From the NCBI RefSeq assembly GCF_056712565.1, contig NZ_CM160072.1: a stretch of 64,000 nt of DNA, one strand, 5' to 3'. The notes under the pieces were generated by a model that was given only the letters and a program-made list of their open reading frames with translations, searched no databases and had not been told where the DNA came from. Each line of letters opens with the position of its first letter. The stretch's first letter is position 1. A program made the translations under genes and the position numbers. This document shows positions 32,707 through 33,343 of the stretch, one piece after another.

Positions 32707-32791
32707 TTTTGTATATTAGAATTCCGGCATCACTGATACGTGCAGATATCCGTGTATACCAGACGTATAAATTGTACAGGAGCACGAGATC

Positions 32792-33025
32792 ATGACTGCA
32801 AAACGTACCACACAAAGTGTGACCGTCACCGTCGACCGTGAGTTAGTCAATCGCGCTCGTGATGCAGGCTTAAATATGAGCGCCACCCTTACGGTTGCGC
32901 TCAATGCTGAACTTAAAAAACATGCAGCAACACGTTGGCGTGAAGAGAACGCAGAAGCTATCGCTGCGTTAAATCAATTGGCTGATGAAACCGGATGTTT
33001 CTCTGATGAGTACCGGAGCTTCTAG
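32792..33025 (+). CDS. ccdA: CcdA-like antitoxin (chromosomal ccd-type toxin-antitoxin system)
   Basis: 77 aa; ribbon-helix-helix-like N-terminus and C-terminal WREENAEAIAALN...GCFSDEYRSF resembling F-plasmid CcdA; SD aggag upstream; toxin-like frame starts 2 nt after its stop. Confidence 0.8.
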   Translation: MTAKRTTQSVTVTVDRELVNRARDAGLNMSATLTVALNAELKKHAATRWREENAEAIAALNQLADETGCFSDEYRSF

Positions 33026-33027
33026 CG

Positions 33028-33343
33028 ATGCAATTTACGGTATACCGCAGTCGCGGCAGGAACGCCGCGTTTCCCTTTGTTATTGATGTTACCAGCGACA
33101 TTGTTGGTGAGATTAATCGCCGTATCGTTATTCCATTAACACCTATTTGAACGATTTAGCCGTATTCGCCCACCAGAACGGCTTAACCCAATCCTTTTAC
33201 CGGTAGACGGCAAAGAATATGTGCTCATGACGCATGAGACTGCAACTGTTCCAGTTAACGCGCTGGGAACGAAATTTTGCGATGCCAGCGCGCACCGAAC
33301 GTTGATTAAAGGAGCATTAGATTTTATGCTCGACGGGATTTAA
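33028..33343 (+). pseudogene. ccdB: ccdB-like gyrase-poison toxin gene interrupted by a +1 frameshift
   Basis: Frame 0 encodes MQFTVYRSRGRNAAFPFVIDVTSDIVGEINRRIVIPLTPI then stops at 33148-33150; CcdB-like sequence continues in the +1 frame ([64 protein letters not shown], stop 33341-33343). Confidence 0.7.

Follow-up and report, generated by a model that had tools for sequence, protein, structure and literature searches.

The spacer between folA and apaH in the 64,000-nucleotide stretch of Escherichia coli DNA that we analyzed (the window) holds what is very probably a decayed, near-neutral ccdAB islet of the ccdO157 type, which takes the place of the REP-containing 77-bp spacer of K-12 and in which the antitoxin gene ccdA is intact and the toxin gene ccdB is a pseudogene through insertion of a single T. 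A sequence-only reading of the window had described this region as a chromosomal toxin-antitoxin locus. The family and the place of that assignment stand, in the form of a ccdO157-type islet, but the toxin-antitoxin pair does not, as the toxin gene is frameshifted and carries a pseudogene label in RefSeq. The anatomy of the locus, its homologies, the frameshift and the distribution of its alleles are matters of observation. Both the islet and its toxin-dead state of decay are already known, and they match the published "decay of ccdO157" as far as Mine et al. 2009 is quoted in later papers. The features of the locus and its flanks, in window coordinates, are:

32227..32706, + strand: folA (dihydrofolate reductase), the left flank, from the open reading frame (ORF) list and the RefSeq annotation of the colinear APEC O1 and ATCC 11775 sequences
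32704-32706, + strand: stop codon of folA, TAA
32707..32791, + strand: leader of ccdA, 85 bp, 60% A+T, a putative ccd-type multi-site operator/promoter
32711-32716, 32754-32759 and 32765-32770: GTATAC-like hexamers in the ccdA leader (GTATAT, GTATAC and GTATAA, respectively)
32719, 32745 and 32773: other 6-bp palindromes in the ccdA leader (GAATTC, GATATC and TGTACA, respectively)
32778-32782, + strand: Shine-Dalgarno sequence of ccdA, AGGAG
32792..33025, + strand: ccdA, intact antitoxin gene, 77 aa, from matches to Pfam PF07362 and to F-plasmid CcdA in the PDB, and an identical RefSeq protein
33028..33343, + strand: ccdB pseudogene, 316 nt, frameshifted, from its length, three-frame translation and the RefSeq flag on identical DNA
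33028..33150, + strand: remaining N-terminal CcdB ORF, 40 codons and then TGA (33148-33150), from the ORF list
33146..33148, + strand: T run with the extra T (ATT to ATTT), the inactivating +1 insertion, from alignment to intact alleles
33149..33343, + strand: C-terminal 64 codons of ccdB (ERFSRIRPP...FMLDGI and stop) in the +1 frame, lacking an upstream start, from frame translation
33340..34188, - strand: apaH, 282 aa, the convergent right flank, from the ORF list and RefSeq annotation
33340-33342, - strand: stop codon of apaH

Between the stop codons of folA and apaH the spacer measures 633 bp (32707-33339), against 77 bp in K-12 MG1655, a length that is also given in PMC7232551; the earlier estimate of about 630 bp as opposed to about 77 bp was thus accurate. 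In K-12 a REP-like palindrome occupies the position of the ccd islet, and the two spacers have in common only about 20 nt at the left and TTTAAGACGC at the apaH stop. Comparison with the K-12 spacer revealed no target-site duplication in the form of direct repeats around the ccd cassette. In the literature, PMC7232551 included, the spacer is treated as plastic and as occupied either by REPs or by ccdO157. The right-hand boundary is tight: the TAA of ccdB (33341-33343) and the convergent apaH stop (33340-33342) share 2 nt, as had been claimed. Relative to K-12, a 6-nt indel and a number of substitutions set apart the 3' end of apaH itself (33340-33370): the gene encodes 282 aa in the window, as it does in the other genomes with ccd that we examined, and 280 aa ending in DLGEAAAS in K-12. 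This variant end seems to be tied to the adjoining ccd islet, which suggests that the islet has spread by homologous recombination of its flanks. A different arrangement is seen in NZ_AP027764.1, where the site carries a 615-nt gene annotated as 'IS1096 element passenger TnpR family' and retains no more than the final 72 nt of ccdB; the TnpR gene is apparently another occupant of the folA-apaH hotspot, with ccdA and most of ccdB displaced.

The antitoxin gene predicted by the sequence-only reading is indeed present and complete. The 77-aa product of ccdA (32792-33025) matches the Pfam CcdA model PF07362 from end to end (E-value 1.5e-26, model positions 2-71 of 71), and its residues 8-75 match the solved structure of F-plasmid CcdA in the PDB (E-value 9e-6). 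It is identical to WP_000125566.1, and the same protein is found in O157:H7, ST131 and ATCC 11775. By homology it is predicted to comprise the N-terminal ribbon-helix-helix and C-terminal CcdB-binding parts of the family. The stop of ccdA, a TAG, ends at 33025 and the ATG of ccdB lies at 33028, which leaves the 2-nt gap that had been noted, and the gene order is that of a type II system, with ccdA immediately upstream of, and co-oriented with, ccdB.

The toxin gene is a different matter, in that the single CcdB-like reading frame reported earlier does not exist. The ccdB span (33028-33343) is 316 nt long, i.e. 3 × 105 + 1, and is hence not a multiple of three. Its first frame reads MQFTVYRSRGRNAAFPFVIDVTSDIVGEINRRIVIPLTPI and then meets TGA at 33148-33150, with the remainder of the gene in the +1 frame; in the program-made ORF list ccdB accordingly appears as two 40-aa ORFs in different frames. 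The ccdB genes of O157:H7 F1273 and ST131 5392 are uninterrupted at 315 nt, and alignment to them places one extra T at this point. Removal of any one T of 33146-33148 restores the ...TPIERFS... of the intact alleles and yields a conceptual CcdB of 104 aa. RefSeq labels the identical DNA in ATCC 11775 and APEC O1 as "CcdB family protein, frameshifted" and as a pseudogene. The 40-aa fragment that can still be read from the native start covers positions 1-37 of the 101-position CcdB model, and the frame across the whole CcdB domain (PF01845) is interrupted by the TGA after codon 40. Among what translation no longer reaches are the C-terminal helix and the terminal Gly-Ile, whose counterpart in the alignment is the end of F CcdB that contacts gyrase. 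Relative to its closest intact allele, WP_001160966.1 (found in D8, AGR5151 and ST131 5392), the CcdB sequence here additionally shows I26V and L57P, and the DNA as compared with an intact allele of this type has one change in the leader and none in ccdA.

Significant similarity to the CcdA and CcdB families, the check proposed for the original assignment, was recovered for both proteins (E-values of 1.5e-26 for PF07362 and 1.4e-31 for PF01845), the T-removed CcdB matching the latter model throughout (positions 1-101 of 101). Among solved structures, the T-removed CcdB retrieves that of Vibrio fischeri CcdB best (E-value 1e-16), along with that of F CcdB (E-value 3.5e-10), and the F-like N- and C-termini attributed to it earlier are evident in these alignments. 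The V. fischeri protein (PDB 2KMT/3JSC) is matched over its full length and shares the IPLTPIE segment at the site of the frameshift, though it comes from another genus and genomic context and its gene is intact. Likewise, the F-plasmid ccdAB system has in common with the locus the two Pfam families, the operon order, GTATAC-like sites upstream, and a toxin that begins with MQF and ends with GI. Yet identity to plasmid CcdB proteins is only ~35.6%, close to the 34.7% given in PMC7232551 for the chromosomal CcdB of CFT073 against plasmid CcdB. Moreover, the scores against the NCBIfam models for the F-type equivalogs (NF010264 and NF010262) fall well under their cut-offs, at 38.6 against 100 for CcdA and 60.3 against 147 for the T-removed CcdB. 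The F toxin ends in W99-G100-I101, and the T-removed CcdB in D-G-I, so that Gly and Ile are conserved and Trp is replaced by Asp, all three being out of frame here; the same Trp to Asp replacement in CFT073 is mentioned in PMC7232551. Further unlike the F system, the ccd genes here are chromosomal and the toxin gene is broken, and chromosomal ccd is reported in PMC2654758 to be neither addictive nor stabilizing. As judged from these comparisons, the two genes are members of the CcdA and CcdB families that belong to the divergent chromosomal ccdO157 lineage, rather than orthologs of the F-plasmid genes.

The closest described relative is ccdO157 itself (O157:H7 EDL933; Wilbaux et al. 2007, Mine et al. 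2009), with which the locus shares the folA-apaH site and the gene order, its DNA being 98.4% identical over 637 nt to the O157:H7 allele and its CcdA protein identical. The locus falls into the class with active antitoxin and inactive toxin that PMC7280312 and PMC3879964 document for ccdO157. The locus differs from it in that ccdB is a pseudogene through the +1 T insertion, and the O157:H7 CcdB departs from the one here at four residues (S/G10, I/V26, V/E28 and L/P57), two of which, I26V and L57P, also separate the CcdB of the window from the intact B2 allele. More distant parallels are other decayed chromosomal toxin-antitoxin loci such as hok/sok, of which E. coli K-12 has inactivated copies: addictive properties are lost on the chromosome by point mutations or rearrangements (as stated in PMC2654758), but hok/sok are type I systems with RNA antitoxins and their genes are unrelated.

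Homology to the K-12 spacer is confined to the first ~20 nt of the 85-bp ccdA leader, everything after them being specific to the islet. The leader contains three hexamers within one mismatch of GTATAC, a number reached by 0.1% of the tiles of the same size in the window and by 1.2% of shuffles; the same count in the F operator gives four in 113 bp, a segment that has at least 8 CcdA sites (PMC5389731). Together with the other palindromes, these hexamers sit roughly one helical turn apart, and the leader is putatively operator-like, resembling the F operator. A consensus scan of 32600-33500 found no canonical sigma-70 promoter, and a manually picked candidate, with TATAAA at 32766-32771 as its -10 element, was rejected as too weak given its poor -35. 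There is likewise no terminator between folA and ccdA. Within the 5' end of ccdB we considered a terminator-like hairpin (33052-33069) as an attenuator and discarded it: it folds no better than shuffled sequences (z = -0.82), and the O157 allele breaks one of its pairs. An Rfam search found no known RNA family in or near the ccd locus.

We found the 637-nt ccd interval in 2024 of 5426 complete E. coli genomes, in one copy each and always on the chromosome, which agrees with the earlier remark that this is a recognizable accessory islet already described for some E. coli lineages. A plasmid origin was considered and set aside: the sole near-identical match labeled as a plasmid, CP054241.1, is 834 kb long and also carries apaH. 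In that E. coli record ccdB (98% identity) adjoins apaH, and the record itself is likely to be a piece of chromosome, or a chromid, that was wrongly filed under plasmids. An 81-nt probe centered on the frameshift detects the +T allele as a perfect match in 133 complete genomes, and its other matches differ at the frameshift site, most of them being 80 nt long. The genomes with the +T allele include those of UTI89, APEC O1, S88, IHE3034, UM146, NU14, IMT5155, APEC O18, ST95-32 and ATCC 11775. We take UTI89, APEC O1, S88 and similar +T strains to represent the ST95 clonal complex of phylogroup B2. Across its 64 kb the window is 99.98% identical to APEC O1. The identical 81 nt recur in 133 genomes that were sequenced in different eras, so that the extra T does not stem from a sequencing error, and the +T lesion is real, inherited and lineage-specific.

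We counted lesions of ccdB in complete genomes by means of junction probes. Sampling nine alleles from other genomes uncovered three more independent lesions of ccdB, and CcdA was full-length in all nine. The four lesions are the +T frameshift of this window and APEC O1 (133 genomes), the nonsense change G95* of SK1144 and several O25b:H4 strains (413 genomes), the nonsense change C83* of AR_0015 (93 genomes) and the 13-bp deletion of 20Ec-P-124 (about 259 genomes), the last number being an estimate obtained by subtracting 1004 matches aligned through the gap from 1263 full-coverage matches. Disrupted or C-terminally truncated ccdB thus accounts for about 898 of the 2024 ccd-bearing complete genomes, through at least four independent, clonally expanded lesions; the corresponding 44% is not a population frequency, as the set of complete genomes is strongly skewed to clinical clones. 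The figures quoted from Mine et al. 2009 in later papers are 61% of ccdO157 loci with both genes active, 21% with the toxin inactive and 2% with both inactive (PMC3879964), or about 30% of toxin genes defective (PMC7280312). Set against the resulting range of roughly 21-30% inactive toxins, our 44% is in qualitative agreement. In the same vein, chromosomal ccd toxins are said to be under neutral selection and plasmid toxins to be constrained (PMC7280312, PMC3920263), and PMC2654758 describes ccdO157 as "undergoing a degenerative process" within E. coli, adding that even intact ccdO157 neither stabilized a plasmid nor stopped large deletions.

Elsewhere in the window we noticed several other departures from related genomes. 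At the 5' end of lptD (40040-40073, minus strand) 2 bp are missing at ~40052, namely the TC of ACT-CTC-CTG at codon 8. This deletion is shared by none of 5,425 matching complete E. coli genomes and is absent from APEC O1. From the annotated ATG (40073-40071) the frame of this essential gene consequently reaches a stop after about 17 codons, and the long lptD ORF restarts at the ATG at 40042, equivalent to Met12, with the signal peptide losing MKKRIPTLLAT. The deletion could be either an error of the source assembly or a real signal-peptide mutation with re-initiation. A poly-A run at ~53568-53574, within a small hypothetical ORF of the araC-yabI islet, has seven A residues in the window and six in APEC O1; this difference and the lptD indel suggest that the source assembly may carry indel errors. 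The accessory islet between araC and yabI (~53085-54630) consists of the remnant of a frameshifted IS630 transposase followed by three hypothetical ORFs of about 77, 190 and 140 aa that have no annotated function. The region 15789-16380, between carB and caiF, holds an IS200C transposase gene that is not expected from K-12 and is preceded by a strong match to the Rfam family STnc490 (15789-15912, 146 bits). There is a tandem duplication in the araD-araA intergenic region (48169-48434), its period being ~85 bp (self-BLAST of 181 nt at 91.7% identity with an offset of ~85 nt), and this is probably a REP/BIME-type array. A borderline match to the Rfam family naRNA4 (CssrE) on the minus strand near rluA/djlA (41176-41268, 59.6 bits against a gathering threshold of 59.5) is probably also a REP-derived element.

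Returning to the ccd locus, the +T insertion ends translation of CcdB after 40 of its 104 codons, and with only these codons translatable toxin activity is predicted to be absent. No gyrase poison would then be made, and neither post-segregational killing nor toxin-mediated growth arrest would follow. Transcription of ccdA would presumably persist, whether it starts in the leader of the gene or continues from folA, read-through being possible because no sigma-70 promoter was detected and no terminator intervenes between folA and ccdA. The CcdA of F, when alone, is a weak and non-specific binder of its operator, and it is dimers of CcdB that bridge dimers of CcdA into a repressing chain (PMC5389731). 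By analogy with that system, the proteins of which are only ~35% identical to those here, loss of CcdB has probably derepressed the ccdA leader, and the product would be a solo, presumably Lon-labile CcdA that lacks a partner. The C-terminal part of this CcdA is homologous to the CcdB-binding part of F CcdA. Such a locus is probably no longer addictive and close to neutral, a remnant at the 'toxin first, antitoxin later' stage of decay.

Several other readings of the locus deserve to be weighed against this one, most of which turn on the state of ccdB. Were the extra T an error of sequencing or assembly and the true locus intact, the window would at least offer precedent in its two private indels relative to close relatives (the 2-bp lptD deletion and the A7 rather than A6 run); but the same 81 nt with the extra T stand in 133 complete genomes, including the older finished ones of UTI89, APEC O1, S88 and IHE3034 and that of the type strain, which reduces the chance of such an error to practically nil. 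An intact and functional type II module, in which CcdB poisons gyrase and CcdA neutralizes it, would be in keeping with the operon layout, the 2-nt spacing of the two genes, the recognizable N- and C-termini of CcdB and the existence of unbroken versions in O157:H7 and some ST131 strains. Such a module is barely credible here, given that codon 40 of the 316-nt ccdB is followed by an in-frame TGA and that the gene is a pseudogene in RefSeq, which refutes it at the level of sequence unless recoding intervenes. Recoding would require a +1 shift of the ribosome, programmed or leaky, at AUU-UGA-A (33146-33151), which would give wild-type CcdB at a low level and hence a low-dose toxin module. The +1 site of prfB has as its core a U-ending codon followed by a stop codon in the A site. 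The arrangement in ccdB is of this kind, a +1 slip on the T run would skip the TGA and give the ...TPIERFS... of the intact alleles, and the downstream 64 codons remain open. By virtue of the superficial likeness of AUU-UGA-A to the CUU-UGA-C of prfB, a trace of full-length CcdB may be conceivable. However, the sequence upstream, CCAUUAACACCU, has no Shine-Dalgarno-like stimulator, a slipped tRNA-Ile would pair with UUU at only two of three positions, and the context is UGA-A and not the weak UGA-C. An open downstream frame is in any case expected in a young clonal lineage, and the +T allele also has L57P and I26V. The three other common ccdB alleles are inactivated by nonsense or deletion, which points to plain decay. 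We regard a recoding module as highly improbable, and thus also that the +T allele is not dead but yields wild-type-length CcdB by a low-efficiency +1 slip; a milder variant has solo CcdA kept as a functional antidote or regulator. Were the slip real, the ST95 lineage would carry at its ccd locus, in place of a pseudogene, a low-dose gyrase-poison module throttled by recoding.

The remaining question concerns ccdA, which selection might maintain for a function of its own, for example as an antidote to ccdO157-like toxins that enter the cell or as a regulator that binds DNA. Every decayed allele sampled has a full-length CcdA, these alleles comprising four independent toxin lesions in about 898 genomes, and an anti-addiction model has been put forward for chromosomal ccd systems (PMC2654758). 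As against this, the F-plasmid CcdB is reported to evade CcdA-O157 (PMC3920263 and PMC7354431) and the search for toxins of the ccdO157 type found none on true plasmids, which would leave an anti-addiction role without an obvious target. PMC10886550 differs on the first point, stating that chromosomal CcdA protects against F CcdB; we have followed PMC7354431 and PMC3920263, the latter of which comes from the original group. A regulatory role sits poorly with the weak and non-specific DNA binding of CcdA alone in the F system (PMC5389731). Loss of the toxin first is the sole non-lethal order of loss, so that an intact antitoxin is expected even without selection, and about 2% of the loci have lost both genes (both according to PMC3879964). 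Selective retention of ccdA is consequently unlikely in our estimate. The +T lineage is young and clonal, and although ccdA is unchanged in it, a neutral ccdA and one kept by selection would therefore look alike.

On the reading we favor, that of a decayed ccdO157-type islet, the correct record for this locus is an intact ccdA followed by a ccdB pseudogene, and not a working toxin-antitoxin system. This affects inventories of toxin-antitoxin systems that are used in studies of persistence, virulence and phylogroups in ExPEC and APEC strains of the ST95 type; beyond the correction of annotation the finding is of little importance. The census of ccdB lesions is modestly supportive of the published view, in which relaxed selection lets chromosomal ccd toxins decay and the antitoxin survives.
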